DNA of 64,000 nucleotides from an uncultured Enterobacteriaceae bacterium (GTDB lineage Bacteria > Desulfobacterota > Binatia > UBA12015): NCBI GenBank assembly GCA_964529315.1, contig CAZGUU010000001.1:2902-66901 (forward strand), read 5' to 3'. Within the stretch, counting starts at the first letter, position 1, and each line of letters begins with the position of its first letter. Both the position numbers and the translations under genes were made by a program. Positions 1,889-58,025 of this stretch are shown piece by piece. Below the pieces are notes generated by a model. That model saw only the letters and a program-made list of their open reading frames with translations. It ran no database searches and was not told where the DNA came from.

Positions 1889-3718
1889 ATGTGCGGCATC
1901 ATGGGATACATCGGCGAGCAGGAGGCGAGCCAGATCCTGGTGGGCGGCCTGCGCCGCCTGGAGTACCGCGGCTACGACTCCGCAGGCCTGGCGACCTTGA
2001 TCCATGGCCACATCGACGTCCGCCGCTGCGTCGGCAAGCTCGACAACCTGGACCGGCTGCTGCGCGAATCGCCGCTGAGCGGCACGATCGGCCTCGGGCA
2101 CACGCGCTGGGCCACGCACGGCCGACCCTCGGAGGAGAACGCTCACCCGCACCGCGCCGGCAAGGTCGTGGTCATCCACAACGGGATCATCGAGAACTAC
2201 CTCGAGCTCAAGGCCGAGCTCGAGGCACGCGGGCGAAGGTTCACCTCGGAGACCGACACCGAGGTGATCTCGCAGCTCATCGACGAGCATCTCTGCCAGG
2301 GGCTGGATCTGCTCGGCGCCAGCCGGGCGGCCGTGAAGCGGCTGCACGGCTCGTTCTCGATCGTCGTACTCTGCGAGGACGACAAGTCGCGGCTGCTCGC
2401 CGCCAAGACCGCGACGCCGATCGTCATCGGCCTGGGCCAGGGCGAGAACTTCGTCGCCTCCGACGTTCCGGCGATCCTCGACCACACGCGAGAGGTGCTC
2501 TTCCTCGAGGACGGCGAGATGGCCGAGGTCACCCGTAGCGGGGTGACGCTGACGACGTTCGACGGCGAACCCGTCGAGCGCAAGCCCAAGCACATCAGCT
2601 GGGACCCGATCACCGCACAGAAGGGCGGCTACAAGCACTTCCTGCTCAAGGAGATCCACGAGCAGCCCCAGGCGATGATCGACACCATGCTGGGGCGCAT
2701 CCGCCAGGAGGAAGGCGACGTCGTCCTACCCGAGCTCGAGCCGCTGCGCGCCACCTGGCCGGGAATCCAGCGCATCTACCTGACCGCGTGCGGCACGGCC
2801 TGGCACTCCTGCTTGGTGGGCAAGTTCCTCCTCGAGGAGATGGCGCGCATCCCCGTCGAGGTGGACTACGCGAGCGAGCTACGCTACCGCCAGCCGCTGC
2901 TCGGGCCCGACACGCTGCTCGTCGCCGTCTCCCAGTCGGGCGAGACCGCCGACACGCTGGCGGCGGTCGAGGAGGCCCGCGCCTGCGGGGCCAAGGTGCT
3001 CTCGATCTGCAACGTGGTCGACGCCTCGATCCCGCGGCGCGCCGACTGCGTGCTCTACACGCACGCGGGCCCCGAGATCTCGGTCGCCAGCACCAAGGCC
3101 TTCACCACGCAGCTCACCGCCTTCTACCTGCTCGCCATCCACCTCGGCCGCATGCTCGGCCGGCTCGGCGAGGAGCGCGGGCGCGCGCTGGTCGCCGACC
3201 TGGTCAACTTGCCGAGTCTGGTCCAGGAGACCCTCGGGCGCGACAAGCAGCTCGAGAAGATCTCGAAGAAGTACGGCCACGCGACCGACTTCCTCTACCT
3301 CGGGCGCGGCATCAACTACCCGATCGCGCTCGAGGGGGCGCTCAAGCTCAAGGAGCTCTCCTACATCCACGCCGAGGGTTACCCCGCCGGCGAGATGAAG
3401 CACGGCCCGATCGCCTTGATCGACCAGCAGCTCCCGGTGGTCGTCCTGCTGCCGCGCGACCCGATGTACCCCAAGACGCTCTCCAACCTGAAAGAGGTCG
3501 AGGCGCGCGGCGGGCGGATCATCGCGGTCACGGACTCCCCCTCGCCCGAGCTCGAGGAGATCGCCTGGGAGACCATCGTCGTGCCACGGGTGACGCACGA
3601 GCTCGCGCCGATCCTGCTGTCGATTCCGCTGCAGCTCCTGGCCTACCACATCGCCGTCTACCGCGGCTCGGACGTCGACCAGCCGCGAAACCTCGCCAAG
3701 AGCGTGACGGTCGAGTAG
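1889..3718 (+). CDS. glmS: Glutamine--fructose-6-phosphate aminotransferase
   Basis: 609 aa. N-terminal MCGIMGYIG (class II amidotransferase Cys1). Two SIS domains and the C-terminal KSVTVE. Confidence 0.95.
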   Translation: MCGIMGYIGEQEASQILVGGLRRLEYRGYDSAGLATLIHGHIDVRRCVGKLDNLDRLLRESPLSGTIGLGHTRWATHGRPSEENAHPHRAGKVVVIHNGIIENYLELKAELEARGRRFTSETDTEVISQLIDEHLCQGLDLLGASRAAVKRLHGSFSIVVLCEDDKSRLLAAKTATPIVIGLGQGENFVASDVPAILDHTREVLFLEDGEMAEVTRSGVTLTTFDGEPVERKPKHISWDPITAQKGGYKHFLLKEIHEQPQAMIDTMLGRIRQEEGDVVLPELEPLRATWPGIQRIYLTACGTAWHSCLVGKFLLEEMARIPVEVDYASELRYRQPLLGPDTLLVAVSQSGETADTLAAVEEARACGAKVLSICNVVDASIPRRADCVLYTHAGPEISVASTKAFTTQLTAFYLLAIHLGRMLGRLGEERGRALVADLVNLPSLVQETLGRDKQLEKISKKYGHATDFLYLGRGINYPIALEGALKLKELSYIHAEGYPAGEMKHGPIALIDQQLPVVVLLPRDPMYPKTLSNLKEVEARGGRIIAVTDSPSPELEEIAWETIVVPRVTHELAPILLSIPLQLLAYHIAVYRGSDVDQPRNLAKSVTVE

Positions 3719-3832
3719 CGGGCGTGGGCATCGCCCCCGGCGCGTGCGCCGCGCCAGGGCAACGGCGCAGGGGAGGCTGGCTGCGCTCGGCCGGGGAGCG
3801 AGATCTGCGAGGCTCCCCAGGGCACGGCTTGC

Positions 3833-5158
3833 GTGGCTTCGCCGCCGAGCGTTAAGTCGAAAGCCGTGTTCGGCTCGTTGCCCGAGTCCCAGATCGATCA
3901 GCCGGCTCGCCGCCGCTCCGTAGCGACCATCGAGGAGGCGATCGCCGACTACCGCGCCGGTCGCATGGTCATCGTCATGGACGACGAAGACCGTGAGAAC
4001 GAAGGCGACCTGTGCATGGCAGCCGAGAAGATCACCGCGGAGGCGATCAACTTCATGGCCACCGAGGGCCGGGGTCTGATCTGCCTGCCTCTCTCGGCCA
4101 CGAAGCTCAGCGAGCTCGGCCTGCCGATGATGGTTTCGGAGAACAATGCGCCGCTCGGCACGGCCTTCACCGTGTCGATCGACGCCCGTCGGGGGATCGG
4201 CGCCGGCATCTCGGCGAGCGACCGGGCGCGCACCATCCTGACCGCCGTGGCCGACGGCGCCACACCCAGCGACATCAAGACCCCTGGCCACGTCTTTCCG
4301 CTGCGCGCCCGCGACGGAGGCGTCCTGGTGCGCACCGGGCAGACCGAAGCGGCCGTCGACCTCGCCCGCCTGGCGGGCCTCAAGCCGGCCGGCGTGATCT
4401 GCGAGATCATGAAGAGCGACGGGACCATGGCCCGGCTGCCCGACCTCAAGCGCTTCGCCCAGCGGTTCGGCTTGAAGCTCGTCACCATCGCCGACCTGAT
4501 CCAGTACCGGCTGCGGCACGACTCCCTGGTGCACCGGGTGGCCGAGGCGCGCATCGCGACGCGCTACGGAGGCGAGTTCCGCGCCTGCGTCTACCGCAGC
4601 GACGTCGACGGTGGCGAGCACCTGGCGCTGGTCAAGGGCGAGATTCGCCACGATGTCCCGACGCTCGTGCGGGCGCACGCCGAGTACCTGCCGGGGGACG
4701 TCTTCGCGTACGCCGAGCGGAACACGGGCGAGCTCCTGCACCGCGCGATGCAGATCATCGCCGACGAGGGACGGGGCATCGTTCTCTACTTGAAGCGCGA
4801 GCACGGCTCGGAGATGTTCGCGCCGCGTGGCGAATCCACGCAGCCAGGCCGCGACGACACCGACGCGAGCAAGCCGAGCACCATGTCCTCGGCGAGGCTC
4901 AAGGAGTTTCGCGAGTACGGCATCGGCGCGCAGATCCTGCGCGACCTCGGCGCGGGAAAGATTCGCCTGATCAGCAACTACCGCCGCCGGCTGGTGAGCC
5001 TGCCGGGATACGGCCTGGAGATCGTCGAGACCGTGCCGCTCGACGTCGATGCGTCCCCGGCAGCGCAGATGGCGGTCGACTCCGGCAAGCCTCGGCGCGC
5101 GAGATCCGCCCGGTCGAACACTCCCCGGCGCACCCCGCTCGCGAGCCGCCAGCGCTGA
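3833..5158 (+). CDS. ribBA: Bifunctional RibB (3,4-dihydroxy-2-butanone-4-phosphate synthase) fused to a RibA-like GTP cyclohydrolase II domain that looks degenerate
   Basis: RibB motifs RENEGDL and ICEIMKSDG in the first half. The second half aligns by eye to RibA (ADEGRGIVLYLKRE vs AEEGRGILLYHRQE), but the zinc-ligand cysteines appear replaced (HAEYLPGD..AYAERNTG vs HSECLTGE..SLRCDCG). Confidence 0.8.
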   Translation: MASPPSVKSKAVFGSLPESQIDQPARRRSVATIEEAIADYRAGRMVIVMDDEDRENEGDLCMAAEKITAEAINFMATEGRGLICLPLSATKLSELGLPMMVSENNAPLGTAFTVSIDARRGIGAGISASDRARTILTAVADGATPSDIKTPGHVFPLRARDGGVLVRTGQTEAAVDLARLAGLKPAGVICEIMKSDGTMARLPDLKRFAQRFGLKLVTIADLIQYRLRHDSLVHRVAEARIATRYGGEFRACVYRSDVDGGEHLALVKGEIRHDVPTLVRAHAEYLPGDVFAYAERNTGELLHRAMQIIADEGRGIVLYLKREHGSEMFAPRGESTQPGRDDTDASKPSTMSSARLKEFREYGIGAQILRDLGAGKIRLISNYRRRLVSLPGYGLEIVETVPLDVDASPAAQMAVDSGKPRRARSARSNTPRRTPLASRQR

Positions 5159-5217: not shown

Positions 5218-7311
5218 ATGCACCGGCGGAGCTCGTCCAACGAAAGCGGCCGACCCGGCCGTCCGGCGATCACGGGCAGATCCCCATCGACCGGCCGGCG
5301 GGGTATCCACCCGCGGGCTGCCGCTGCCCGCACGGCGGCCCGCCCACGGGACTCGACGGCGGCCCGCGGCCCGGCGCTGGTCGTCTGGGCTGCCTTGGCT
5401 GGCCTGCTGCTCTGCTGCAAGGGAGGTGCTGCGGCTGCGGGCGTCGTCCATCTCGGCGGCTCGATCGACCGCGCGGCCGACGGCCGGCTCATGGCATCGG
5501 CCCACGTGACGATCGCGCCCGGCTATCACATCAATGCGCACCGCCCCGCGGCCGACCACCTGATCCCCACCGAGCTGACGCTGACCGCGCCCGGAGCGCG
5601 ATTTGCGCCGCCCGTCTACCCGGAGCCGATCGCACGAGAGTTCGCCTTCAGCCCCGGCGAGAAGCTCCTGGTCTACGACGGACGCATCGAGATCCGAGCG
5701 CCGGTCGAGGAGCCGCCTGCGGGGCCGGTTCTGGCAAAGCTCCGCTTCCAGGCCTGTGACGAGGAGCGCTGCTTGCCACCGGCCACCGTCGAGGCGACCT
5801 TTGGGCGGGCCGACGCTGCCGCCCCGCCCGGCGATGCCGCGGGGGGAGCGAGCGCGGGGAGCCAGGGCTCCTCCTGGCTCACCCGCTGGCTCGAGCAGGC
5901 GAGCCTTCCCGCGGCCATCGCGATGAGCTTGGTGCTCGGCCTGACGCTGAACCTCACGCCGTGCGTCTACCCGCTGATCTCCGTCACGGTGGCGTACTTC
6001 GGCAGCCAGGCGCGGCCGGGGGAGCGGCCGTGGCGCCACGCCGTCGCCTATGTGCTGGGCATCACGGCGAGCTTTGCGGTGCTGGGCTCGAGCGCGGCAC
6101 TGTTCGGCGGCCTGATCGGCGCGCCGTTGCAGCATCCGGCGGTGCCGATCGCCGTGGCGGCGCTGCTCTTGGCGCTGGCCGGCTCGAGCTTCGGGCTCTT
6201 CGAGCTGCGCCCACCAGCCGCGCTCCTGCAGCGCTTGGGCGGCGCCTCGGTCGGCATCGGCGGCGCCCTGCTCATGGGGTTGACGATGGGTGTGGTCGCC
6301 GCGCCCTGCATCGGACCGGTGATCGTCGGTCTGCTGGTCTTCGTCGGTGCCAAGCGCGACCTGGCCCTCGGGCTTCTCCTGTTTCTTTCGCTCGGCCTGG
6401 GCATGGGGCTACCCTACCTGCTCCTGGCTTCGGCCGCGGGCTCCATCCGACGCCTGCCCCGTTCCGGTGAGTGGCTGCGCTGGGTGAATCGCCTGTTCGG
6501 CGTGATCCTCGTCGGCATGGCGCTCTACTTCCTGGCGCCGCTTCTCGGCCCACTCGCGCTGCGCGTCCTGGTGCCGGCGTACCTAGCCCTGGCCGGTCTC
6601 TACCTCGGCTTCCTCGAGCCCTCGGGCCGCGGGCTCAAGCGCTTCTCGGCTGCACGCCACATGCTGGGCCTCGGGCTGGTGGCCGCCGCCGGCTGGATCG
6701 CCTTGGTGGGTACCGAGCCCTCGGCCCAGGCGCGCGACCGGATCCGTTGGGAGCCGCTCTCCGTCGACTCCCTGGACCGGGCAATCGCCGCCCGGCGTCC
6801 GGCGATCGTCGAGTTCGCGGCCGATTGGTGCATGCCCTGCGTGGCCATGGCCCGGACCACGTTCGTCGATCCCGACGTGACGCGCGAAGCGGCGCGATTC
6901 GCCATGCTGCAGGCAGACGTGACCGAGAGCACACCGGCCAGCGAGGCGCTGCTCTCGCAGTTCCAGATCCTCGGCGTGCCGACGATCCTGTTCTACGGGC
7001 CTGCGGGAGAAGAGGTGGATCGGGTCGTGGGCTTCGTCGACGCCGAGCGCTTCTTGGGCATCATGCGCCGGGTGGCCGGAGGCGACGCAGAGCCACCCGC
7101 GAACGACCAGACCGAGCGCGCCGCAGGCGACCCCTCGCTATCCGGATTCGGGGAAGAGCGTCGGCAGGTAGTAGCCGCCGAAGGGGACGTACTCGCCACG
7201 AACCATGTAGGTGCACAGCGAGTGGATCTCGAGCCCGGCCGCAAGCAGATGCTCGACCAGGTCGGAGCACCTGGCCGGCACGAGGAGGCGCACGTCGGCT
7301 CTCGCCGGTAG
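5218..7311 (+). CDS. dsbD: Thiol:disulfide interchange protein DsbD-like: periplasmic alpha domain, CcdA-like transmembrane core, C-terminal thioredoxin domain
   Basis: Alpha-domain cysteine pair ACDEERCLPP. Transmembrane core with TPCVYP and AAPCIGP. Thioredoxin motif ADWCMPC. The Arg-rich first 50 aa and the last 70 aa past the thioredoxin domain may be read-through, so the start is uncertain. The 3' end overlaps the convergent GNAT gene. Confidence 0.75.
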   Translation: MHRRSSSNESGRPGRPAITGRSPSTGRRGIHPRAAAARTAARPRDSTAARGPALVVWAALAGLLLCCKGGAAAAGVVHLGGSIDRAADGRLMASAHVTIAPGYHINAHRPAADHLIPTELTLTAPGARFAPPVYPEPIAREFAFSPGEKLLVYDGRIEIRAPVEEPPAGPVLAKLRFQACDEERCLPPATVEATFGRADAAAPPGDAAGGASAGSQGSSWLTRWLEQASLPAAIAMSLVLGLTLNLTPCVYPLISVTVAYFGSQARPGERPWRHAVAYVLGITASFAVLGSSAALFGGLIGAPLQHPAVPIAVAALLLALAGSSFGLFELRPPAALLQRLGGASVGIGGALLMGLTMGVVAAPCIGPVIVGLLVFVGAKRDLALGLLLFLSLGLGMGLPYLLLASAAGSIRRLPRSGEWLRWVNRLFGVILVGMALYFLAPLLGPLALRVLVPAYLALAGLYLGFLEPSGRGLKRFSAARHMLGLGLVAAAGWIALVGTEPSAQARDRIRWEPLSVDSLDRAIAARRPAIVEFAADWCMPCVAMARTTFVDPDVTREAARFAMLQADVTESTPASEALLSQFQILGVPTILFYGPAGEEVDRVVGFVDAERFLGIMRRVAGGDAEPPANDQTERAAGDPSLSGFGEERRQVVAAEGDVLATNHVGAQRVDLEPGRKQMLDQVGAPGRHEEAHVGSRR

Positions 7312-9437: not shown

Positions 9438-9885
9438 GGGCGTGAGCCATCACCCCTTGCCGTCGCTCGCCACGACCGGCTGACGACGCAGCCGTGCACG
9501 GCTGGCTGCGGCCCTCGGAGCGCCGCAGCCGCAGCGGCGGACCCGCGTGGCAGAAGCTCACGAGATCCATGCGTGGCCTACCCGGCAGCAGCAAGGATCC
9601 GTCGCGGCAGGGGCGGCATCCGCCGGCTCGGCGGATGCGGGCAGCCCCGGGGTGTCCGGGAAACCCGCTCACGGTCCGAGATCGCACCGCCAGGGGGGCC
9701 GCATCGCTGCGGCGGCCCGAGGGACCGACCGCAGTGAGAAGCCGGGGCTCCCAGGGCTTAGCGAAGCTCAGAGACCGTTGACAGGAGCCCCACCAGATGG
9801 TTCCTTGCCCGATTGCCTCGCGCGCTGACAGCGGCCGCGCGGCGGACTTCCGGCAGCGGTTCTCGACGAGAAACGAGCGGGTGAG

Positions 9886-10044
9886 ATGAAACGGACGTAT
9901 CAGCCGAGCAACCGCCGGCGAAAGCGCGTACACGGCTTCCTGGCGAGGATGGCGAGCCCGACGGGTCGCCAGGTGATCAAGCGCCGCCGACGCAAGGGGC
10001 GCAAGCGCCTCACCGTCTCCATTCCAGCGAAGCAGCCCGGCTGA
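9886..10044 (+). CDS. rpmH: 50S ribosomal protein L34
   Basis: Hand-translated [52 protein letters not shown]. Too short for the ORF track. Confidence 0.9.
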
Positions 10045-10054
10045 GAGGCCTGCC

Positions 10055-10465
10055 TTGGCGGGCATCGGGGTATCCGCCGGCACCCAGGGGCTCCCTGCGG
10101 CGGCGCGGGTGAGAAAGCGCCGCGAGTTCCTCGAGATCCAGCGGGTGGGCCGGCGTCTGCCTACGCGTCACTTCCTGGTCGTCGCGCTCGAGGGTGGCCT
10201 GGGCGGCGCGCGGCTCGGCATCACCGTTACGCGCAAGATCGGCTGCGCCGTCGAGCGCAATCGCGTCAAGCGGTCCGTGCGGGAGGCCTTCCGCCGCAGT
10301 CGCCAGATCGTCGCCGACGGTGTGAGCCTGGTCGTCATCGCCCGAGCAGGGGCTCCCGCGCTCGACGCCACGCGTGTGGCTGGCGAGCTCGAGCCGGCGT
10401 TTCGCTCGCTCGGCCGGGGAGGCGCGCAGGGGCCAAGGCCGACCGCGGGCAGCATCGAGTCATGA
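10055..10465 (+). CDS. rnpA: Ribonuclease P protein component
   Basis: Contains [15 protein letters not shown] and [19 protein letters not shown] (the RNR motif). TTG start at 10055; an in-frame GTG at 10109 (MRKRREFL) is an equally plausible start. Confidence 0.85.
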
Positions 10466-10803
10466 GCCGCTATCTTTCGTTCGTGCTCCAGGGGGCGATC
10501 CGCGCCTACCAGATCGCCGTATCGCCGCTCGTCGGACCGGTGTGCCGGTTCTCGCCGAGCTGCTCGGCGTACACCCACGAAGCGATCGAGCGCTACGGGC
10601 CATCTCGGGGTCTCTGGCTGGGCGCGCGGCGCCTGGCCCGCTGCCATCCCCTGAAGGAAGGGGGTTTCGACCCCGTCCCGGACCCGCCGCATCTCGCCTC
10701 CGACCTGCTCGCTTGCGAAGCTAGGGGCAGCGCCTCAACGCGCCGCCTGATCGCGCTGGCGCTTGGTAGGACGAAACGCGCTCCCTCCGAGGTGAGCAGC
10801 TGA
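10462..10803 (+). CDS. yidD: Membrane protein insertion efficiency factor YidD
   Basis: [38 protein letters not shown] overlap with the rnpA stop. Confidence 0.85.
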
Positions 10804-12476
10804 TGGACCGACGCACGATCCTCTTCATCACGCTCTCGGTCCTGATCATCGTCCTCTACCAGGAGCTCGTCCTCAAGCGCATGGCGCCGCCACCAGCGCC
10901 AATGGAGATCGAGGGGGTCGAGCGGCCCGTCGCCACGGCGTCGCCTGGGCCGCGTGCCGACGTCCCACGGCCCACGGGCGAGGAACCCTCGCCGGAGGCC
11001 GCGGCGATGGCCGCGAGCCAGGCCCAACCGTCGGCGCCCCTCGAGGGGCGTAGGATCTCGGTCGAGACGGACCTCTACACCGTCGTGCTCACCACCGCGG
11101 GCGGCCGGATCGAGAGCTTCACGATGAAGCAGTTCCGGGCGACGAACGCTCCCGACAGCCCGCCGCTCGATCTGATCGTCCCGGGCCAGGAATCGGAGCT
11201 GCCGCTGGGTGTCGAGCTGCGCGGCGCTCGGGTGTGGTCCGATGCGCGCTCGGTGTACGAGTCGACAAGCTCGGCACTGCGTCTGCACGGCGCGGAGCAG
11301 GCGACCGTCGAGCTCGAGACGGCCATCGGCAGCCAGACCATCGTCAAGCGGCTCACCTTCCGCGGCGACAGCTACCCGATCGAGGCGCGCATCGAGACGC
11401 CCGCATCGGCCGGCCTCGCCCCCGAGCTCGTGGCGGCGAGTCCCGATGGCCAGGCGGCCGGCGTGGCCCTGGTGTGGAGCAAGTCGCTGCGCAAGGAGAA
11501 AGACGCGGCGGGTGTCTTCGAGGGTGCAGCGGCCGTGATCGACGGCAAGCTCGTCCAGACCACCCCCGCGGACCTGACCAAACCGGAGAACCTCACGGGC
11601 ACCGTGGCGTGGGCGGGCTACGAGGATCACTATTTCCTGTCTGCCGTCGCCCCGGACCGCGCACAGCTCGTCGCGCTTCGACCTCGCGGCGAGGCCATCG
11701 AGACGAAGATCGTGACCGCACGAGAAGGCAGTGGACCCACGGTCGTCGGCTACACGCTCTTCCTCGGGCCGAAGGAGCTCTCGGCCCTGCGCGAAGCTGG
11801 GCACGACCTCGAGCGAGGTCTGAACCTCGGCTGGTTCGGACCGATCTCTCTCTTCCTGCTCCACATCCTCAATCTCTCCCATCGGATCACGGGCAATTAC
11901 GGGATCGACATCATCCTGCTGACCATCCTGGTGAAGATCGCCTTCTGGCCGCTCACGCAGAAGAGCTTCCAATCGATGCGCGAGATGCAGAAGCTCCAAC
12001 CGGAGATGGCCAAGCTTCGCGAGAAGCACAAGGACGACCCGACGCAGATGAACAAGGAGATCATGGAGCTCTACAAGCGGCACAAGGTGAACCCGCTCGG
12101 CGGGTGCCTGCCGATGGTGCTCCAGATCCCAGTGTTTTTTGGCCTTTACCAGGCTCTGTCGAGCACGATCCAGCTACGCCACGCGCCGTTCTTTCTCTGG
12201 ATCACCGATCTCTCGGCACCCGAGCGGCTGCCCATCCTGGGCTACGGCGTGCCCGTCCTGACCATCCTGCTCGGGGTGTCGATGTTCGTGCAGCAGCGCA
12301 TGTCGCCGCCGGCGGGAGATCCCACGCAGCAGAAGGTGATGATGTTCATGCCGATCATCTTCACGTACATGTTCATCGGCTTTCCCGCCGGGCTGACGCT
12401 CTACTGGCTGACCAACAACGTGCTGACCATCGCGCAGCAGTACTTCGTCCTGCGCGGGGCGCCGCCTCGAGCCTGA
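10803..12476 (+). CDS. yidC: Membrane protein insertase YidC
   Basis: 557 aa. Conserved Oxa1/YidC core NPLGGCLPMVLQIPVFFGLYQAL. N-terminal transmembrane segment plus a large periplasmic domain. Confidence 0.95.
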   Translation: MDRRTILFITLSVLIIVLYQELVLKRMAPPPAPMEIEGVERPVATASPGPRADVPRPTGEEPSPEAAAMAASQAQPSAPLEGRRISVETDLYTVVLTTAGGRIESFTMKQFRATNAPDSPPLDLIVPGQESELPLGVELRGARVWSDARSVYESTSSALRLHGAEQATVELETAIGSQTIVKRLTFRGDSYPIEARIETPASAGLAPELVAASPDGQAAGVALVWSKSLRKEKDAAGVFEGAAAVIDGKLVQTTPADLTKPENLTGTVAWAGYEDHYFLSAVAPDRAQLVALRPRGEAIETKIVTAREGSGPTVVGYTLFLGPKELSALREAGHDLERGLNLGWFGPISLFLLHILNLSHRITGNYGIDIILLTILVKIAFWPLTQKSFQSMREMQKLQPEMAKLREKHKDDPTQMNKEIMELYKRHKVNPLGGCLPMVLQIPVFFGLYQALSSTIQLRHAPFFLWITDLSAPERLPILGYGVPVLTILLGVSMFVQQRMSPPAGDPTQQKVMMFMPIIFTYMFIGFPAGLTLYWLTNNVLTIAQQYFVLRGAPPRA

Positions 12477-12761
12477 GCGGCCAGACGGCGACGGGGTTGC
12501 CGCCGGTCCCGCCCGGAGGGTGAGCGGCGAGGCCACGGCCGACCGGGGACCAGGCCGCCGGAGCCGCATCTCCGCATCGCCCGGTGCGCGCGACCGAGGC
12601 CCGCCCGTCTCGTCGCAGGGCTGGCAGCGATCGCGCGCACGCCGTGCCCCGCCTCGCATCGACGTCGCTGCTCGATGGGACGTCATAGAACGTGGTTTGC
12701 GTTTCTTGCGCTCCAGCACTCCCGTCAGCTTCCGATTGCACGCCGGAGCTCTGCTTCTGGT

Positions 12762-14273
12762 ATGTCCGGGCCGATGCGCGCCTACGCCGACGAGACGATC
12801 GCCGCAGTCGCCACACCGGCGGGTGTAGGCGCGATCGCCGTCGTCCGCATGAGTGGTCGCTTGGCGCTGGACGTCGCCGCGCGCGTTCTCGTTCGGCGCG
12901 ACGCCCTGCGTCCTGTCGCGCGCCTGCGCGACTCGCACCGAGCACGCATCGCCCGCATCTGGGATCCCGAGACCCACCAGATCTTGGACGAAGTCCTCGT
13001 CCTGCCGATGCTCGCACCGCGCAGCGCCACCGGTGAGGACGTGGTCGAGATCCACTGCCACGGCGGGCCATTGGTGTCCGATCTGATCCTGCGTGCCCTG
13101 CTGCGGGCGGGCGCCAGGGCTGCCCGCCCAGGCGAGTTCACGGAGCGCGCTTTCTTGAACGGTCGCATCGACCTCTGCCAGGCCGAGGCGGTCGCAGATC
13201 TCATCGCCGCCAGAAGCGACGCGGGTCTGGATTCAGCCCGCCTGCAGCTCGAGGGCCGGCTGTCGCAGACCATCGCCTCGTTGCGCGAGCGCATCGTGGA
13301 GGCGCGCGCCCTGACCGAAGCTTACCTCGACTTCAGTGACGAGGACCTCCCCGAGAGCGAGCGCGCGGAGTTGCTCGACGCCATCGCGTCCCTGCGTCAC
13401 GACGCTCGCGAGCTTGGGAGCAGCTATCGGCGCGGACGCCTCGCCAGAGAGGGCCTACGAATCGCCCTGGCCGGCAAGCCCAACGTCGGCAAGTCCTCCC
13501 TACTCAACAGCCTCCTCGGCCGCGAGCGCGCGCTGGTCAGCTCCGTCCCGGGGACCACGCGCGACTACCTCGAGGAGCCGCTGGCCATCGGCACGCTAGG
13601 CGCGCTTCTCTGCGACACGGCCGGGCTACGCTCAGCCGTCGATCCGGTCGAGCTGGCCGGTGTCACGCGAGCCGCGGAGAGGATCCGTGAGGCGGACGTC
13701 ATTCTCGTCGTCCTCGACGGCTCTGTCGCCCTGGACGCCGACGACCGCCTTGCGCTGCAGCCGACCAGCGGCGGACCACCGAGAATCGTCCTGCGCAACA
13801 AGGCGGACCTTCCGGCGGTGTGGACCTGGCCCGAGGCCGAGAGCTTTTTCGGGATCGGCTCGGGCAGAGACGAAGCCTCTCGTGAGGCCGAGTGCAGCGA
13901 CTCGGCAGGCCGGCAGTCAAGGCTGCCCGCGGCGAGCAGGCGCGACCCCGTCGCGGCATCCCTCGACGTATCGGCCAAGACGGGAGAGGGGATCGCCGAG
14001 CTCTGCCGTGCAATCCAGAGCACGATCCTGCCTGCTGCGGACACGAGCTGCGCGGAGCGCCCGAGCATCACGCGGGCGCGCCACGAGAGCGCTCTCGGTC
14101 GGGCGGTCGAGCTGCTCGAGGGCGCGGAGCGTCGGGTCCGGGAGTGGGCGGAGCTCGACCTGGCGGCGATCGACCTCAGCGCCGCCACGTTGGCCCTCGA
14201 CGCCCTTCTCGGCACGATCCACGACGAGGAGGTGCTCGACGCGATCTTCCGCAGGTTCTGCGTCGGCAAGTGA
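12762..14273 (+). CDS. mnmE: tRNA modification GTPase MnmE
   Basis: GTPase motifs [21 protein letters not shown]-terminal CVGK. Start trimmed to MSGPMRAY; an ATG at 12774 is also possible. About 30 extra residues between G4 and G5. Confidence 0.9.
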
Positions 14274-14291
14274 CCTCGGCCTCTTCCCCGG

Positions 14292-14307
14292 AGTTTCACG
14301 TGGAACA
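14292..14307. promoter_or_regulatory. parS: parS-like site AGTTTCACGTGGAACA (14/16 to TGTTTCACGTGAAACA), overlapping the GTG start codon of mnmG
   Basis: Seen directly. It is the reverse complement of the site at 16931-16946. Confidence 0.6.
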
Positions 14308-16946: not shown

Positions 16947-17135
16947 CCCGAGCGATTAAGACCGATCCAGCCCGCCCGCAGCTCGACGCGGCAGGTGCAT
17001 CCGCCTCCGCCAGGCCAGCTACGAGCCCGCCAGAAGACGTGCAGGGCGGGGCTGCAACGGGCGGCTCGAGCTCTCGTGCGCCACCTCCCGGGCGTTCCGA
17101 GAAGCCCTCGGAGCGATGCTCGACCGGGCGCTTTC

Positions 17136-17176
17136 TGTGCGGCGCGCAAATCTGCTAGTGAGCGGCGCGCAGCACA
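17136..17176. promoter_or_regulatory. Inverted repeat TGTGCGGCGCGC..(17 nt)..GCGCGCAGCACA ending on the parA ATG; a candidate operator or 5'-UTR hairpin
   Basis: Arms 17136-17147 and 17165-17176 are reverse complements with one mismatch. Confidence 0.35.
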
Positions 17177-17946
17177 TGGGACGCGTCATTGCCATCGTGA
17201 ACCAGAAGGGCGGTGTGGGGAAGACGACCACCGCCGTGAACCTCGCCGCCGCACTCGCCATGACGGGTCAGGCGGTCCTGCTGGTCGACGTGGATCCCCA
17301 GTGTAGCGCGACCAGCGGCGTGGGCATTCGCGCCGGCGAGGGAGAGCCCTCCACATACGACCTGCTCCTCGGCCATGCGTCTGCCGAGGGAGCGCTACGC
17401 AAGACCATGCTGCCCGGCCTCCAGGTCCTGGCTGCGAGCCGCGACCTGGTTGGCGCCGAGATCGAGCTCGTGACGGCCGAGGCCCGAGAGCACCGCCTCA
17501 AAGAGGCGCTGGCCGCCGTACGCTGGCGGTACAATTTCGTCCTGGTGGACTGCCCACCCTCGCTCGGACTCGTCACACTGAATGCTCTGACCGCCTGCGA
17601 CTCGCTGCTGATCCCCCTGCAGTGCGAGTACTACGCGCTCGAGGGGCTGACGGCGCTCCTCGAGACGGTGGGTCTGGTCCGCGAGAGCTTGAACCCGGAA
17701 CTCGCCATCGAAGGCCTGCTGCTCACCATGTTCGATGGACGCAACACGCTCTGCCGTCAGGTCGCGGAGGACGTCCGCAGCCACTTCCAAGAAAAGGTCT
17801 TCACGACCATCATCCCGCGCAATGTCCGCTTGAGCGAGAGCCCGAGCCACGGACTCCCGGCACAGCTCTACGACCCATCGTCGCGAGGTGCGATCGCCTA
17901 CGGCGAGCTGGCTCGGGAGGTGATTGCCAACAGCCGAGATTCATAG
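17176..17946 (+). CDS. parA: Chromosome partitioning ATPase ParA (Soj)
   Basis: Start trimmed to MGRVIAIVNQKGGVGKTTTAVNLAAALA (deviant Walker A). 256 aa. Confidence 0.92.
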   Translation: MGRVIAIVNQKGGVGKTTTAVNLAAALAMTGQAVLLVDVDPQCSATSGVGIRAGEGEPSTYDLLLGHASAEGALRKTMLPGLQVLAASRDLVGAEIELVTAEAREHRLKEALAAVRWRYNFVLVDCPPSLGLVTLNALTACDSLLIPLQCEYYALEGLTALLETVGLVRESLNPELAIEGLLLTMFDGRNTLCRQVAEDVRSHFQEKVFTTIIPRNVRLSESPSHGLPAQLYDPSSRGAIAYGELAREVIANSRDS

Positions 17947-17962
17947 AACCGTGTTTTGATTC

Positions 17963-18895
17963 TTGGGGGACTCCATGCGGCAAGCTCTCGGCAAAGGTAT
18001 CGGCGCTCTGATTCCATCGGCAACCACCCGTACTCGCCAGGCGGGATCCGCGCCGATCGAGGCAGGACAGCATCGGGCACACGGCAGCGTGCAGCAGATC
18101 CCCATCGCCGCCGTCTCTTTGAATCCCCGTCAGCCGCGCCAGCACTTCGAGCAGAGCGAGCTCGACGACCTCGGCCGCTCCGTGGCCTTGCACGGCATCC
18201 TGCAGCCGATCCTCGTACGCCCTCTTGCCGACGGCCGCTTCGAGCTGATCGCCGGCGAACGCCGGCTGCGCGCGGCGCGTCTCGCAGCGCTCGAGACCAT
18301 CCCGGCCGTCGTCAAGCAGGCCGACGACGCTGCGAGCCTGGTCCTGGCAATCGTCGAGAACGTCCAGCGTGCCGACCTCTTTCCCCTGGAGGAGGCCCGA
18401 GCCTATCGCGAGCTGATGCGCGAGTTCTCCCTCACCCAGGAGCAGGTGGCCGAGCGGGTCGGCAAGAGCCGTCCTGCGGTGGCCAATACGCTCCGCCTGC
18501 TCCAGCTACCCGAAGAGGTCCAGGCCGATCTCGCCGCCGGCCGCATCACCGCCGGGCACGCCCGTGCGCTTCTCGCCCTCGAAACCGACGCCGCACGCGT
18601 CGCCTTCGCGCGCGAGATCGCCAACCGTCGGCTCTCCGTGCGCCAAGCGGAGCACGAGGCCGCCCGCTCCCGCCCTGCCCCGTCCCCCCCCGCCTCCATC
18701 GATCCCGACCTCGCCCGCATCGAGTCGGATCTCGGCCGCGCCCTGGGCACCAAGGCCTCCGTCCGCCTCTCCCGTGGTGCAAAGGGAGGCGGTCACATCG
18801 AGCTCGCCTTCTACTCCGACGACGACCTCGCCCGGCTCTGCGACTTGCTCCTGGCCAGCGCGACCCACAAGGCCCCGCGAGCCCACCGCGCCTGA
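17963..18895 (+). CDS. parB: Chromosome partitioning protein ParB
   Basis: N-terminal LGKGIGALI. ParB box GERRLRAARLA (CTP-binding motif). An HTH and a C-terminal dimerisation region. Confidence 0.92.
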   Translation: MGDSMRQALGKGIGALIPSATTRTRQAGSAPIEAGQHRAHGSVQQIPIAAVSLNPRQPRQHFEQSELDDLGRSVALHGILQPILVRPLADGRFELIAGERRLRAARLAALETIPAVVKQADDAASLVLAIVENVQRADLFPLEEARAYRELMREFSLTQEQVAERVGKSRPAVANTLRLLQLPEEVQADLAAGRITAGHARALLALETDAARVAFAREIANRRLSVRQAEHEAARSRPAPSPPASIDPDLARIESDLGRALGTKASVRLSRGAKGGGHIELAFYSDDDLARLCDLLLASATHKAPRAHRA

Positions 18896-19822: not shown

Positions 19823-20260
19823 ATGCTCGAGATACCGCCCGACATCACCTACTACCTGCAGATCGTCGCCTTCCTCGTCTTCGCCGCGATGCTCCACGCC
19901 CTGGTTTGGTCCCCCACCCAGCAGGTCCTCGACGAGCGCGCCAAGCGCACCAGCGGAGCCCAAGCCGAGGCCGCCACCATGCGTGAGGAGGCGGCTGCCT
20001 TGCAGGCCCAGCTCGACGCGGAGCTCGAGGCAGCGCGGCAGGCGGGCAGCGACGCTGGTGCAAAGATCCGCCGGGAAGCGGAGGCCGCCGAGCGACAAAT
20101 CCTCGAAGAGGCGCGCCACGATGCCGCGCACTCCCTCGAGGACGTGCGCCAGCGCGTGACCCGGGAGACCGCGCTCGCTCGCGCGGCGCTGCGCGACCAG
20201 GTGGGATCGATCGCAACCCTGGCCGCCGAGCACCTCCTCGGCCGCTCGGTGGCCGCATGA
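19823..20260 (+). CDS. atpF2: F0F1 ATP synthase subunit b' (first of two b-type subunits)
   Basis: 145 aa. One N-terminal transmembrane helix, then a long Ala/Glu/Arg-rich coiled coil. First gene of the atpF'FHAGDC block. Confidence 0.75.
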   Translation: MLEIPPDITYYLQIVAFLVFAAMLHALVWSPTQQVLDERAKRTSGAQAEAATMREEAAALQAQLDAELEAARQAGSDAGAKIRREAEAAERQILEEARHDAAHSLEDVRQRVTRETALARAALRDQVGSIATLAAEHLLGRSVAA

Positions 20261-20919
20261 GACCCACCACGGCTCCTGGCCGCATCGTCACGGCCCGCGC
20301 CACCGCAGGCCGCGACCCGGCCGCTCTCCTCCGGCGAGCCGTCGTCGCCCTGGCGGCGCTCTTCCTCCTGCCAGCTCTGGCGCTCGCCTCCGAGGCTGGT
20401 GGCGAAGCCCACCCTCGCTCGGTCCAGATGCTGGTCTTGGCGTTCGTCAACTTCGCCATCTACTTCTTCTTGCTGCGCCGCTTCGCCTGGCCGCTGGTCG
20501 TCCAGTACCTCAAGGACCGGCGCGCCGGGGTGGTCGCCGCCCTCGAGGCCGCCTCCCGCGCGCGAGCCGAGGCCCAGGCCATCAAGCAAGAGTTCGAAGC
20601 CAAGCTGCGCGGGATCGAGGCCGATGCGGCTCGGGCGCGTGCCGAGATCGTCGCCCTGGCCGAAACCGAGGCCAAGCACCTCCTCGAGCAAGCTCGCAGG
20701 TCCGCCGATCGCATCCGCAGCGACGCGCGCCTGGTCGCCGATCAGGAGGTCGCCCGGGCTCGCCGGCTGCTGCAAGAGGAGAGCGCCGCACTGGTCGCCG
20801 AGATCGCCGGGCAGGTGGTCGCGCGCAATCTGACGAGCGAGGATCAGTCGCGGTTCGTCGCCGACTTCTTGATCGACGCGCGCGCCACCGCCGCCTCGTC
20901 CGCGGGAGGCGCCCGATGA
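20257..20919 (+). CDS. atpF: F0F1 ATP synthase subunit b, with a signal-like N-terminal extension
   Basis: 220 aa. A transmembrane helix then a coiled coil (AEAQAIKQEFEAKLRGIEADAARARAEI). Overlaps atpF' by 4 nt and atpH by 4 nt. Confidence 0.8.
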   Translation: MRPTTAPGRIVTARATAGRDPAALLRRAVVALAALFLLPALALASEAGGEAHPRSVQMLVLAFVNFAIYFFLLRRFAWPLVVQYLKDRRAGVVAALEAASRARAEAQAIKQEFEAKLRGIEADAARARAEIVALAETEAKHLLEQARRSADRIRSDARLVADQEVARARRLLQEESAALVAEIAGQVVARNLTSEDQSRFVADFLIDARATAASSAGGAR

Positions 20920-21464
20920 CCGGCGCCGTCGCGAAGCGCTACGCTCGAGCTCTGGCCGCCGTCGCCTCGGAGGAGGGCCGCCTCGAGTCGACGGTCGAAG
21001 AGCTCGCCCGGGTTTCGGCCTGGGTCGCGGACCCCCAGCTCGCCACCGCCCTGGCGGCTCCGACGCTCGCAGGGGCACCACGGCGCGCCCTGATCGGGCA
21101 GATGACCCAATCCCTCGGCCTCGCCACCCTGACGAGCAACTTCCTCTCCCTGCTCGCCGAGCGCAACCGGCTGGGCGAGCTCGCGGCGATCGCTCATGCT
21201 TACGGCGCCATGGTCGACCGCGCGCTCGACCGGGTGCGCGCCAGGATCCGCGTCGCCGCCCCCCTGGCGGCCGAGACGCTGGCCGAGGTGTCGGAGGTGC
21301 TCGAGAGGATCTGCGGCAAGTCCGTGATCGCCACCGTCGAGACCGACCCCGACCTGATCGGCGGGCTCACCATCGAGATCGAGGGGCGCGTCTACGACGG
21401 GAGCGTACGCACGCAGCTCGAGCACCTGGCACGCACCCTCTCGCGCGCCACCCCACCCGGCTGA
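20916..21464 (+). CDS. atpH: F0F1 ATP synthase subunit delta
   Basis: 182 aa. OSCP-like fold by position and length, immediately upstream of atpA. Confidence 0.8.
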   Translation: MTGAVAKRYARALAAVASEEGRLESTVEELARVSAWVADPQLATALAAPTLAGAPRRALIGQMTQSLGLATLTSNFLSLLAERNRLGELAAIAHAYGAMVDRALDRVRARIRVAAPLAAETLAEVSEVLERICGKSVIATVETDPDLIGGLTIEIEGRVYDGSVRTQLEHLARTLSRATPPG

Positions 21465-21540
21465 GCCGCGCCCAGCCAGCCACGCTCGCGCCCGAAACCA
21501 TCGCGTCAACGAGAGACAGGCGGAAGAGGAGAAGTAGCAG

Positions 21541-25399
<3,859 letters not shown>

Positions 25400-25417
25400 G
25401 CGGACGCGGCGGGAACC

Positions 25418-25816
25418 ATGCGACTCGTCGTCGTCACACCAGAGCGGCTCGTCCTCGACACCGACGTCGAGGAAGTCTACGCCCCTGGCGTCATGGGCCA
25501 GTTCGGCGTGCTTCCCAAGCACGTCACCTTCCTGACGGCGCTCGCCAGCGGCGAGCTCCGCTACCGGGAGCGCGGCACCGACCGCTACATGGCCGTGAGC
25601 GGCGGTGTGTGCGAGGTGCTCGACGACACGGCGACGATCCTCGCCGATACGGCGGAGGCCGCTTCCGAGATCGACGTGGATCGCGCATCGGCCGCGGAGA
25701 AGCGCGCCATCGATGCGCTGTCCCGAGCTGCGGCGGGCAGCCTGGAGCACACCGAGCTGCGCGCTGCGGCCGAGCGAGCGGCAAACCGCCGGGCCGTCGC
25801 CGCTCGAGCGAGGTAG
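25418..25816 (+). CDS. atpC: F0F1 ATP synthase subunit epsilon
   Basis: 132 aa, starting MRLVVVTPERLVLDTDVEEVYAPGVMGQFGVLPKH. Confidence 0.9.
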   Translation: MRLVVVTPERLVLDTDVEEVYAPGVMGQFGVLPKHVTFLTALASGELRYRERGTDRYMAVSGGVCEVLDDTATILADTAEAASEIDVDRASAAEKRAIDALSRAAAGSLEHTELRAAAERAANRRAVAARAR

Positions 25817-25826
25817 CTGCTCCGCT

Positions 25827-26948
25827 TCAGGCGGCTCCGGCCGCCATGCGACGCTGGGCCGTCAGGACGAATTCGACGTCGGTCGATCGCTCGGGCCACT
25901 CGACGCGCACCTCTTCACCCCCGACCAGCTGCCGCGAGGCAATCAGGCGCGCCAGCGGCGAAACCAGCCGTCGCTCGACGACCCGCTTCATGGGCCGTGC
26001 TCCGTTCTCGGGGTCCGTGCCTTCCGCGAGGAGCCTGCGGATCGCCTGATCGCTGTAGCGGATCGACAAGGCGACGCCGCGCCGCGCCAGACGTCCCTCG
26101 ACCTTCTGGATCTCGAGCCGCAGGATCTCCTCGAGCTGGCTGGGGCTCAGCCGGTGGAAGACGATCTTGTGATCGATTCGGTTCAGGAATTCGGGGGCGA
26201 ACGTCCGCCGGGCCGTCCACAGAACCGCCTTCTCGACCCGGCGCTGGACCGCGGTCTCGGCTTCCCCGGTTCGACCGACGAACCCCATCGGCGGCGAGAG
26301 AATCTCTCCCAGCGAGCGGCTGCCGACGTTGCTCGTGAGAAAGATGAAGCAGCGCGACAGGTCGACCTCTTTGTTGTTCCCCAGCGTGAGCCTGGCCTTG
26401 TCCAGGACTCCCAGCAGGAGCTGCCAGAGCGAATCGCTCGCCTTCTCGATCTCGTCGAAGAGCAGCAGGGTGAACGGGCAGCTCGCCGTCTGGTGCCGTG
26501 TGATGTTCGCGCTCGAGAGGTAGGGCGTGGTCTCCTGATGCCCGAGGTAGCCCGGTGGCGACCCGATCAGGCGAGAGATCTCGTGGCTGTGGCTGAACTC
26601 CGCGCAGTCGATCTTGAGCATCGCCTTGCGGTCGCCGAAGCACGCGTCGGCGAACGCCTCGACCAGGTTCGTCTTGCCGGTACCGGTCGGGCCAAGGAAC
26701 AGGAAGGAGCCCAGCGGCCGCTCGGAGCTGGCCAGGCCAGAGCACTGGATCTGATAGGCTTCCGTCACCGCATCGACGGCCGGATCCTGGCCGACGACCC
26801 GTTCGCGGAGCGCGCGGCGAAACGCCTCGACGTCCTCGCCGAGGCGGTCGGGGAGAAGCCGCTCTCGGACCCGCTGTGCTCGCCGGGCACCGCGATCGCC
26901 TGCACGCCGCCCCGATCCCGTCCTCTGTCTGTTGCTTTCGGGCACCAC
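25827..26948 (-). CDS. Stand-alone ClpA/ClpB D2-type AAA+ ATPase, with no N-domain, D1 or middle domain
   Basis: Trimmed to a GTG at 26948, preceded by GGAGGA. Walker A GPTGTGKT. Walker [11 protein letters not shown]. Sensor-1 TSN. Sensor-2 GARPMKR. D2-small domain. Aligns closely with the D2 of the ClpB at 55401. The 140 aa upstream in the track ORF are low-complexity. Confidence 0.75.
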   Translation of the reverse strand: MVPESNRQRTGSGRRAGDRGARRAQRVRERLLPDRLGEDVEAFRRALRERVVGQDPAVDAVTEAYQIQCSGLASSERPLGSFLFLGPTGTGKTNLVEAFADACFGDRKAMLKIDCAEFSHSHEISRLIGSPPGYLGHQETTPYLSSANITRHQTASCPFTLLLFDEIEKASDSLWQLLLGVLDKARLTLGNNKEVDLSRCFIFLTSNVGSRSLGEILSPPMGFVGRTGEAETAVQRRVEKAVLWTARRTFAPEFLNRIDHKIVFHRLSPSQLEEILRLEIQKVEGRLARRGVALSIRYSDQAIRRLLAEGTDPENGARPMKRVVERRLVSPLARLIASRQLVGGEEVRVEWPERSTDVEFVLTAQRRMAAGAA

Positions 26949-27063
26949 TCGTCCTCCAACGTAACCAGAAGTCGGCACGGCCGGCCCAACCCTTGAGCCG
27001 CGACGTGAGGACAGGCCGCCTGGCCCCTTCACTCCCCGGGATCTGCGTGCCATAGCCACAGGG

Positions 27064-27804
27064 ATGAAGCTGCACGGCAAGACGGCCTTCGTGACGGGTG
27101 GCTCGCGCGGGATCGGCCGCGCCATCGCGCTCGCCTTCGCCCGAGAAGGGGCAGACGTCGCCCTGAGCTTCCGCCGCGATCTGGCCGCTGCCCAGGCCAC
27201 GGTCGAGGAGATCCGAGCCCTGGGCCGGCGTGCGAGCCACCACCAGGCGGACGTCGCCGACCCCGCGGCCGTCGAGCGCATCTTCCAGGAGGCGGGCGCC
27301 ACCTTCGGCTCGTTCGACGTCGTCGTCGCGAACTCGGGCATCGCCTCTCGGACGGCGTCGGTGACGGACACCGACGTCGCCTACTGGAAGCGGGTTCTCG
27401 AGGTGGATCTCGACGGCGTCTTCTACACCTGCAAGTGGGGCGTCCCGTTGCTGCGAGCGCACGGCAGCGTGATCATCATCTCGTCGATCGGCGCCGACCT
27501 CTGCGCGCCCTTCGGCGCGCCCTACTACGTCGCCAAGGCGGGGGCCAATGCCCTGACCAAGGTCCTGGCCAAGGAGCTGGCTTTCGAGCAGAAGCGCGCC
27601 AACTGCATCGCCCCGGGCGTGATCGCTACCGACATGGGCAACCGCCTCGTGGCGGCCTTGGGCGAGGGCGTCCTGAGCAGCATCCCGCTGGGTCGGCTCG
27701 GCCAACCCGAGGACATCGGCGCCGCAGCCGTGTTCCTCGCCTCGGACGAGGCGAGCTTCATCACCGGCAAGATCCTGCGCATCGACGGCGGCGCGTTCAT
27801 GTAG
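27064..27804 (+). CDS. SDR-family oxidoreductase (3-oxoacyl-ACP reductase-like)
   Basis: TGGSRGIGRAIA (TGxxxGxG). Catalytic YxxxK in PYYVAKAG. 246 aa. Confidence 0.85.
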   Translation: MKLHGKTAFVTGGSRGIGRAIALAFAREGADVALSFRRDLAAAQATVEEIRALGRRASHHQADVADPAAVERIFQEAGATFGSFDVVVANSGIASRTASVTDTDVAYWKRVLEVDLDGVFYTCKWGVPLLRAHGSVIIISSIGADLCAPFGAPYYVAKAGANALTKVLAKELAFEQKRANCIAPGVIATDMGNRLVAALGEGVLSSIPLGRLGQPEDIGAAAVFLASDEASFITGKILRIDGGAFM

Positions 27805-41612: not shown

Positions 41613-41638
41613 CGGCTGGTTCTACGCTTCGCGCCTGC

Positions 41639-44089
<2,451 letters not shown>

Positions 44090-44207
44090 TTAACAGTATT
44101 TGCCGAAAGGTCGCTTATAGCAGACCGAGACGCCGAAAAGAAGCCCCGGCCAGGCCCGCGCACACGCTCCAGCGAACCCCTGCGATCCATCTCGGAATCG
44201 CCGCGGA

Positions 44208-45317: not shown

Positions 45318-45387
45318 CACTTCCCCCCCGTTGGACGAGCACCCCCCGTGAGCGTGCTGCACCGCACTCCCCACGTGCCGCCGTCTT

Positions 45388-45584
45388 CTCTATTCTTCTT
45401 TATACTATTCAAATAGAGGTAGTAGAGCCTGTGGACACGGTGGACAAGGGATTCAACGCCGCGGTTCCCGGTCGCATTCACCTGTGGGAATGAAGGCGCC
45501 GCTGCCATCGGGCGCGAAGATCGCTCTGGTCGGCCGTGGATCTCCCCAGGTTGAGGGCGAGCAGCCCACAGGGAATCCACAAGC
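45388..45584. other. oriC: Candidate oriC core in the dnaA-dnaN intergenic region: a 40-bp AT-rich segment followed by tandem DnaA-box-like 9-mers
   Basis: TCTATTCTTCTTTATACTATTCAAATAGAGGTAGTAGAG (45388-45428). TGTGGACAC (45430-38) and GGTGGACAA (45439-47) abut each other. GAATCCACA at 45573-81. Each is 7-8 of 9 to TTATCCACA or TTGTCCACA. Confidence 0.45.
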
Positions 45585-45652
45585 GCTCGAAGAAGGAGCC
45601 AGTCCCCGGACCGAAGCCCTCTACGCTTCGCCGGGGCCGTGGCAGCGTCGCG

Positions 45653-49332: not shown

Positions 49333-49363
49333 CGACTTCGTCGAGGAAGGCCTCGAAATCCGA

Positions 49364-55400: not shown

Positions 55401-58025
<2,625 letters not shown>

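Follow-up and report, generated by a model that had tools for sequence, protein, structure and literature searches.

Among the genes for riboflavin synthesis are fusions that join RibB, the DHBP synthase (DHBP stands for 3,4-dihydroxy-2-butanone 4-phosphate), to RibA, the GTP cyclohydrolase II (GCH II). Such a fusion lies in the stretch of DNA analysed here, 64,000 nucleotides of contig CAZGUU010000001.1 from an uncultured bacterium that GTDB places in the Binatia (positions 2,902 to 66,901; hereafter the window). The question raised by this locus is whether its RibA-like half still possesses GCH II activity and, if not, in what capacity that half is retained. We consider it probable that the gene encodes a RibBX-type protein, that is, a DHBP synthase joined to a retained and catalytically dead descendant of GCH II, with GCH II itself encoded elsewhere. 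The RibBX phenomenon has already been described, and the window gene is a further, lineage-specific example from uncultured Binatia; what is distinctive is the pattern of substitutions, which is unusually conserved, and the location of the gene outside any operon. The gene and its two domains, with residues of the window protein counted from the first GTG of the open reading frame (ORF), are as follows.

3833..5158, plus strand: ribBX-type gene, DHBP synthase plus degenerate GCH II-like domain (ORF list, G+C at third codon positions (GC3), Pfam)
3932..4507, plus strand: DHBP synthase domain, the RibB half (PF00926, TIGR00506)
4535..5038, plus strand: X domain with a GCH II-like fold, residues 235-402 (PF00925, Foldseek, codon comparisons)

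On the strength of sequence and profile evidence plus experimental precedent, we infer that the protein has RibB activity and that its GCH II-like half is dead. The Pfam domain DHBP_synthase (PF00926) is complete over residues 34-225 with an E value of 5e-86, and the NCBI ribB model TIGR00506, an equivalog-domain model, is passed with 250 bits against a cutoff of 177. The E. coli RibB residues D33, D34, R37, E38, D42, C67, H136, T154, E155 and E174 are all retained in the window protein and in the clade of its relatives, across which the pattern DDDRENEGD...C...H...RTGQTE...E is conserved. A preliminary description of this gene had called the RibB half canonical, and this holds for its catalytic and metal-binding residues with a single change, H153 to Q (Q170, nucleotides 4340-4342, within RTGQTE). 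The same Q153 occurs in canonical RibBA proteins of Nitrospiraceae and Phycisphaerae that carry all three zinc-ligand cysteines. Because a Nitrospiraceae RibBA scoring above the cutoff of the equivalog NF006803 has this Q as well, we read the change as not inactivating, and rejected it as a mark of a lost RibB function.

The second half is likewise complete by Pfam (GTP_cyclohydro2, PF00925, residues 235-402, E value 2e-42), yet two of its segments depart from the canonical enzyme.

4676..4729, plus strand: former zinc motif, H282-G299 (HAEYLPGDVFAYAERNTG), placed by alignment with the codons checked
4781..4888, plus strand: replaced catalytic loop, residues 317-352, placed by comparing the clade with the canonical consensus

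In a HMMER alignment to the M. tuberculosis RibBA structure 4I14, HAEYLPGDVFAYAERNTG faces HSECLTGDVFGSRRCDCG. With E. coli RibA added (a sequence 100% identical to 2BZ0), a MAFFT alignment sets C54 opposite Y285 (4685-4687), C65 opposite R296 (4718-4720) and C67 opposite T298 (4724-4726). Neither alignment places a cysteine at any of the zinc positions, so that the loss of all three ligands proposed in the preliminary description is borne out as C54Y, C65R and C67T; the E. coli motif quoted there as HSECLTGE actually reads HSECLTGD. The damage extends further than the three cysteines noticed at that time. Among the residues of E. coli RibA that bind GTP or act in catalysis are R49, H51, E53, Q70, R94, Y105, T114, D126, R128 and K154. 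Compared with that enzyme, the window protein retains R49, H51, E53, G57-D58, R128 and T/S149 and has the conservative exchanges D126 to E and K154 to R, while Q70 is replaced by L and NNPxK reads NYRRR. The canonical QEGRGIGLLNKLRAYALQD.G.DTVEAN loop is gone altogether, the segment that holds E92-G93-R94, Y105 and D113-T114 having been swapped for an unrelated sequence in which only a short PST motif is conserved within the clade.

The profile models agree with these losses. The NCBI ribA domain model TIGR00505 gives 89.7 bits against a cutoff of 205.85, less than half, and all six equivalogs for bifunctional RibBA remain below cutoff (NF010626, 451 against 513; NF006803, 446.5 against 569; NF006806, 427 against 764; NF009132, 360 against 693; NF006804, 314 against 432; NF006805, 193.5 against 486). 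The ribB model is thus the only one of these NCBI models that the protein passes. The clade members L021, P0125 and P0127 and the RibBX of Rhodobacteraceae show the same behaviour, in contrast to a canonical Nitrospiraceae RibBA, which passes both kinds of model. From these residues and scores it appears almost certain that the C-terminal domain lacks GCH II activity. The suspicion of a dead GCH II domain, which was part of the preliminary description, is strengthened by the missing ligands and loop and the failed ribA profile, and also by the selection on the domain core and the retained fold described below.

If the domain is dead, the organism should possess another GCH II, and this was looked for in several places. 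When the full protein and its GCH II half were used as tblastn queries, the only match in the window was the gene itself. The 10-kb surroundings of the gene held no second GCH II in 20 loci of the clade and four of a sister group, nor did the 2-kb surroundings in three further related loci, and ribD, ribE and ribH were likewise missing from the window and from the flanks of related loci. Among the matches listed, none was a canonical GCH II on one of the large contigs (7.0 Mb, 1.8 Mb and others) that bear the variant. There were also no Binatia among 20 representatives that are canonical or combine a dead RibB with an intact GCH II; these come from Chloroflexota, Solirubrobacterales, Nanopelagicales and Cyanobacteria instead. 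The closest canonical representative, P0129, was rejected as a Binatia ribA, being a frameshifted RibBA of Gemmatimonadales in a ribD-ribE-ribBA-nusB operon; another representative, P0139, belongs to an organism with 57% G+C. In the literature on Binatota we found nothing specific on riboflavin genes.

These searches could be turned into an argument that the protein is still a bifunctional RibBA, which carries out GCH II chemistry through other ligands or with the arginine in place of the metal. The high conservation of the gene family would fit such a reading, and since RibB is pointless without the pyrimidine branch, these organisms must have GCH II activity of some kind. However, the absence of ribA nearby says little, because 64 kb and short flanks are set against genomes of several megabases. 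Moreover, neither the three metal ligands nor the loop with R94, Y105 and T114 survive, the ribA profile reaches less than half of its cutoff, and tested RibBX proteins with a similar loss have no GCH II activity according to PMC10012899. A bifunctional protein is therefore very improbable. Hardly more credible is the bolder proposal that Binatia do without any canonical GCH II and that the invariant Tyr/Arg/Thr domain, with R49, H51, E53 and the presumed nucleophile R128 still in place, performs the first step of the pyrimidine branch independently of zinc; in a milder form of this idea, the X domain may be a metal-free sensor of GTP that couples the two branches of riboflavin synthesis.

A dead domain can also be a decaying remnant without function, or the loss of the cysteines might be an error of assembly or sequencing. 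The source is a 105-kb contig assembled from a metagenome, and in the former catalytic loop and the two tails constraint is relaxed and model confidence low. The homologues tell otherwise. In the best 120 matches from a database of 5.8 billion proteins, at 67-100% identity, the positions of C54, C65 and C67 hold Y (119 of 120), R (120 of 120) and T (120 of 120). Because Y, R and T recur in these homologues, which stem from many independent assemblies, the losses are no sequencing accident; in addition, the reading frame is intact. The named homologues in this set are metagenome-assembled genomes (MAGs) of Candidatus Binatia, "Deltaproteobacteria" and Thermodesulfobacteriota. Among the matches listed, the variant occurs in about 18 GTDB species genomes with the labels Candidatus Binatia, Deltaproteobacteria, Thermodesulfobacteriota and UTPRO1, including "Polyangiaceae bacterium UTPRO1". 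Outside this Binatia-centred clade, identity in the GTDB scan falls abruptly from 66% to 55%, and below the drop stand canonical RibBA proteins from Nitrospiraceae, Dehalococcoidia, Eremiobacterota, Omnitrophota and other groups, each with cysteine at the three positions, together with the RibBX of Rhodobacteraceae. A search seeded with the divergent member P0125 revealed a sister group of 410-residue proteins in which Y and T persist and the arginine is exchanged for G or S; their genes lie on contigs 4.3-5.2 Mb long, of which at least two are apparently circular. Some public taxonomic labels in this family are plainly in error. The contig L013 (CAMBZJ010000011.1), with a Binatia-type gene of 79% identity, bears the title "MAG: Klebsiella pneumoniae", and a protein of the same family (P0019) is labelled "Candidatus Bathyarchaeia archaeon".

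Codon comparisons point in the same direction as the conserved residues. The gene was compared pairwise with those of 20 relatives, and the proportions of nonsynonymous and synonymous differences (pN/pS) quoted here are from the nearer ones. They are about 0.07/0.45 for the RibB half (residues 31-226), 0.08-0.12/0.4 for the N-terminal part of the X domain (235-316), 0.05-0.10/0.4 for its C-terminal part (353-404), about 0.2/0.4 for the replaced loop (317-352), which is relaxed relative to the X-domain core, and about 1:1 for the N- and C-terminal tails. The core of the dead domain, with a pN/pS of about 0.2, is constrained about as strongly as the RibB half. An AlphaFold2 model, built from 93 sequences with a mean predicted local distance difference test score (pLDDT) of 73.9, folds both domains. 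The pLDDT is mostly above 85 in the RibB half, both parts of the X domain that flank the loop are modelled with confidence, and low values fall on the former zinc motif (below 50), the replaced loop (30-40) and the two tails. In a Foldseek search with the whole two-domain model, the M. tuberculosis RibA2 structure 4I14 and the A. baumannii structure 6MNZ matched about equally, with template-modelling (TM) scores on the target of 0.81 and 0.79, and the GCH II-only chain of E. coli RibA (2BZ0) was matched as well. Since the X-domain core is under purifying selection like that on RibB, we regard the domain as a retained, non-catalytic module; a functionless remnant or an assembly artefact is in effect already refuted by conservation and selection, and we assign it next to no weight.

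The same data leave somewhat more room for another view, in which the X domain is a remodelled nucleotide pocket free of metal that either senses GTP or an intermediate and thereby tunes RibB allosterically, or retains the zinc-independent half-reaction from GTP to guanosine monophosphate (GMP) and pyrophosphate. R49, H51, E53 and R128 are kept, D126E and K154R are conservative, the replacing Y, R and T are near-invariant rather than drifting, and the X-domain core is selected as strongly as RibB. R128 is presumably the nucleophile of GCH II. The E. coli RibA variants C54S, C65S and C67S reportedly lose ring opening and still release pyrophosphate to yield GMP, which counts in favour of this view. 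Against it stand the disappearance of R94, Y105, T114 and Q70, all of them GTP contacts of the canonical enzyme, and the poor conservation of the replacing loop, which is modelled as disordered. Moreover, the arginine at the C65 position is G or S in the sister group and hence dispensable within the family. Because the four nucleotide-site residues are kept and the replacements are fixed, some remaining binding of nucleotides, or part of the chemistry, stays a minority possibility; on balance we consider a remodelled pocket unlikely.

We therefore return to the RibBX-type protein as the best explanation. With the zinc site (C54Y, C65R, C67T) and the loop lost, opening of the imidazole ring of GTP would be impossible. 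The dead domain would be kept as a folded and selected module, most likely serving the RibB domain structurally or as a regulator, as is reported for the RibBX of Shewanella, and GCH II activity would be supplied by another gene elsewhere in the genome. Several points weigh against this explanation. The enzyme function of the clade members is predicted from sequence, and the separate ribA is presumed, none having appeared within the window or the 10-kb flanks of related loci. The gene lies outside any rib operon, unlike the RibBX gene of A. salmonicida. Trees of the RibB half join the clade with the proteobacterial RibBX proteins in just 19 of 200 bootstraps. Finally, R49, H51, E53, R128 and T/S149 are kept along with D126E and K154R, leaving more of the nucleotide site than in the RibBX of A. 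baumannii.

The limits of the protein were also reconsidered. The ORF at 3833-5158 on the plus strand encodes 441 residues if counted from its first GTG and has a GC3 of 0.91 in a window of about 69% G+C. A 776-residue ORF on the minus strand across the same region was rejected as a high-GC artefact, the plus frame having coding GC3 and homologues, and the other long ORFs that overlap 3833-5158 in other frames are artefacts of the same kind. Codon 12 of the ORF is a GTG at 3866. Because many homologues begin with MF... opposite V12-F13, this GTG is the likelier start, and the true product is probably one of 430 residues. The other end of the protein carries an additional feature.

5045..5155, plus strand: basic low-complexity C-terminal tail, residues 405-441 (alignment, pN/pS, pLDDT)

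The tail is variable or absent among homologues, its pN/pS is about 1 and its pLDDT is below 50, and it is probably disordered according to the model. The preliminary description had pointed to an N-terminal extension of roughly 25 residues and a basic C-terminal one of 40. The basic tail is indeed present in the ORF and is unconstrained, while the N-terminal extension, also unconstrained, shrinks with a start at 3866 and is probably in part a start-codon artefact; both mean less than was then implied.

The neighbourhood of the gene is conserved in part and contains no other riboflavin gene.

1889..3718, plus strand: glmS, conserved upstream neighbour (ORF translation, tblastx synteny)
3719..3832, plus strand: intergenic region between glmS and ribBX (Rfam, promoter scan)
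5218..7311, plus strand: dsbD-like gene for a thiol:disulfide interchange protein, conserved downstream neighbour (Pfam DsbD_N, DsbD_TM, thioredoxin-like)

Both neighbours recur in the related locus L002, whose syntenic glmS carries GATase_6/7 and SIS domains, and glmS and a gene with DsbD_N recur in L001; in these two loci, a PagL gene on the opposite strand lies between ribBX and dsbD. Sister-group loci carry dxr, squalene/phytoene synthase, x, ribBX and hslO in this order, with no rib genes. A flavin mononucleotide (FMN) riboswitch was not detected by Rfam at the gathering threshold in the whole window, nor at an E value up to 10 in positions 3600-3950, and the promoter scan gave no sigma-70-like site in the intergenic region.

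The wider window is the neighbourhood of the chromosomal replication origin. It contains gyrA, gyrB, dnaN and dnaA on the minus strand within 39087-47002 (dnaA at 45653-47002), and on the plus strand an rpmH-rnpA-yidD-yidC-mnmE block, recognized by synteny with L002 and by Pfam, and parA/parB (9800-14300 and 17116-18895). The G+C content has a minimum at 44-48 kb and the cumulative GC skew one at around 36-48 kb, and two 9-mers resembling DnaA boxes, each with one mismatch, lie directly upstream of dnaA at 47030 and 47053. About 35 kb separate rpmH from dnaA, which is on the other strand. Two clusters about 24 kb apart hold the genes of the F-type ATP synthase, with b, b', delta, alpha, gamma, beta and epsilon at 19.8-25.8 kb (19823-25816) and a and c at 49.3-50.5 kb (49286-50518). 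In addition to a full-length clpB at 55365-58025, there is a 514-residue ORF on the minus strand (25827-27371) that comprises only the second AAA module and the small D2 domain of ClpB (AAA_2 and ClpB_D2-small) and overlaps an adjoining short-chain dehydrogenase/reductase (SDR) gene as called (27064-27804, plus strand); a truncated Clp/Hsp100 paralogue and an ORF that was called too long are both conceivable.

The significance of these findings is modest, and no long-standing question is opened by them. The protein family goes under the label "DHBP synthase / GTP cyclohydrolase II" at JGI, and a single NCBI MAG entry has "cyclohydrolase", so that reconstructions of Binatia pathways relying on such labels would wrongly credit GCH II activity; the NCBI name "DHBP synthase" is already correct for the clade. 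The RibBX phenomenon gains a well-conserved lineage outside the proteobacteria, and with it a handy system in which to ask why dead enzyme domains persist. Because more of the nucleotide site is kept than in the solved A. baumannii RibBX, the clade is also a good subject for work on nucleotide binding by X domains.

In the representative set, the fusion of RibB and GCH II appears in four states, with both halves intact, either one dead, or both dead. Eight proteins of 371-425 residues look dead in both halves, the RENEGD motif of RibB having gone together with the zinc cysteines and catalytic loop of GCH II (P0168, P0191, P0196, P0209, P0219, P0238, P0251 and P0270). In other forms the RibB half is dead and GCH II is intact; P0136 (Chloroflexota) and P0176 (Nanopelagicales) are examples, which bear the NCBI name "GTP cyclohydrolase II". 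The 405-residue P0138 is an apparent intermediate; its RibB is intact and its loop almost canonical (EGR, Y105, D126, R128, K154), and its zinc site has lost two of three cysteines (C54 kept, C65D, C67T). Several representatives that look like short RibA proteins are pieces of RibBA from error-prone assemblies.

How does the window protein compare with known systems? With monofunctional RibB (E. coli, 1G57; TIGR00506) it shares an N-terminal domain that is 52% identical over the aligned half, and NCBI names the clade after this function. Unlike that enzyme, it has an additional selected domain of about 170 residues and unconstrained tails.

The likeness to canonical RibBA is closer in overall sequence. 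The best PDB match by sequence is the M. tuberculosis RibA2 4I14 (E value 2.5e-100, collinear over residues 32-408), which is also the best match by fold. The closest genomic relatives outside the clade are canonical RibBA proteins of Nitrospiraceae (55%), Dehalococcoidia and Eremiobacterota, and RTGQTE or RAGQTE is common to them. By contrast, C54, C65, C67, Q70, R94, Y105 and T114 of canonical RibBA (NF006803/PRK09311) are missing, and the protein stays below the cutoffs of all RibBA equivalogs and of the ribA domain model. Nor does the gene lie in a rib operon, unlike the canonical RibBA genes of L003 and L004, which form ribD-ribE-ribBA-(ribH)-(nusB) operons. These two loci are ENA long-read metagenome contigs with frameshifts in the rib operons, where ribD, ribBA, leuS and metK are each split into several genes.

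RibBX proteins are known from Proteobacteria, among them Shewanella oneidensis, Aeromonas salmonicida, Bradyrhizobium and Rhodopseudomonas palustris (Brutinel, Dean & Gralnick 2013, J Bacteriol 195:5479). According to PMC10012899, which cites this work, the X domain of S. oneidensis lacks GCH II activity and modulates RibB, and ribA is a separate gene in this species too. The "RibBA" fusion of A. salmonicida complements ribB and not ribA, and a monocistronic ribA is essential there (PMC10012899). In R. palustris, flavin-dependent physiology is altered when the X domain carries point mutations, and RibBX is frequently misannotated as RibBA (bioRxiv 10.1101/2025.05.05.652280).

Like these proteins, the window protein combines an intact RibB with a GCH II-derived domain that has lost the zinc ligands and the ring-opening residues. 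It matches the A. baumannii structure 6MNZ, titled "RibBX, a two domain DHBP synthase from A. baumannii", by sequence (E value 5.9e-98) and by Foldseek (E value 2.9e-37), and 6MNZ likewise lacks the canonical sequence in the region of the catalytic loop. The two nonetheless differ in degree. The A. baumannii protein reads RVHGFSPVRDLL at the zinc motif and has lost D126 and R128, whereas the window protein, with HAEYLPGDVF..R.TG, keeps R49, H51, E53, G57-D58 and R128 and is much less degenerate. The setting differs as well, ribD-ribE-ribBX-ribH in A. salmonicida (PMC10012899) against glmS-ribBX-dsbD near oriC here, and so does the host lineage, Binatia in place of Proteobacteria.

The X domain is 34-39% identical to the X domains of Rhodobacteraceae and 41-49% identical to canonical GCH II, while the RibB half is about equally close to Rhodobacteraceae RibBX (0.64-0.67) and to canonical RibBA (mostly 0.61-0.66). 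In a neighbour-joining tree of X domains the window protein groups with other degenerate sequences, a result that long-branch attraction would give as well. RibBX is thus, for the window protein, the name of a functional class and not of a demonstrated clade. An independent loss of GCH II activity from a Nitrospiraceae-like RibBA ancestor with the shared RTGQTE/RAGQTE variant appears at least as likely as common descent with the RibBX of Proteobacteria.

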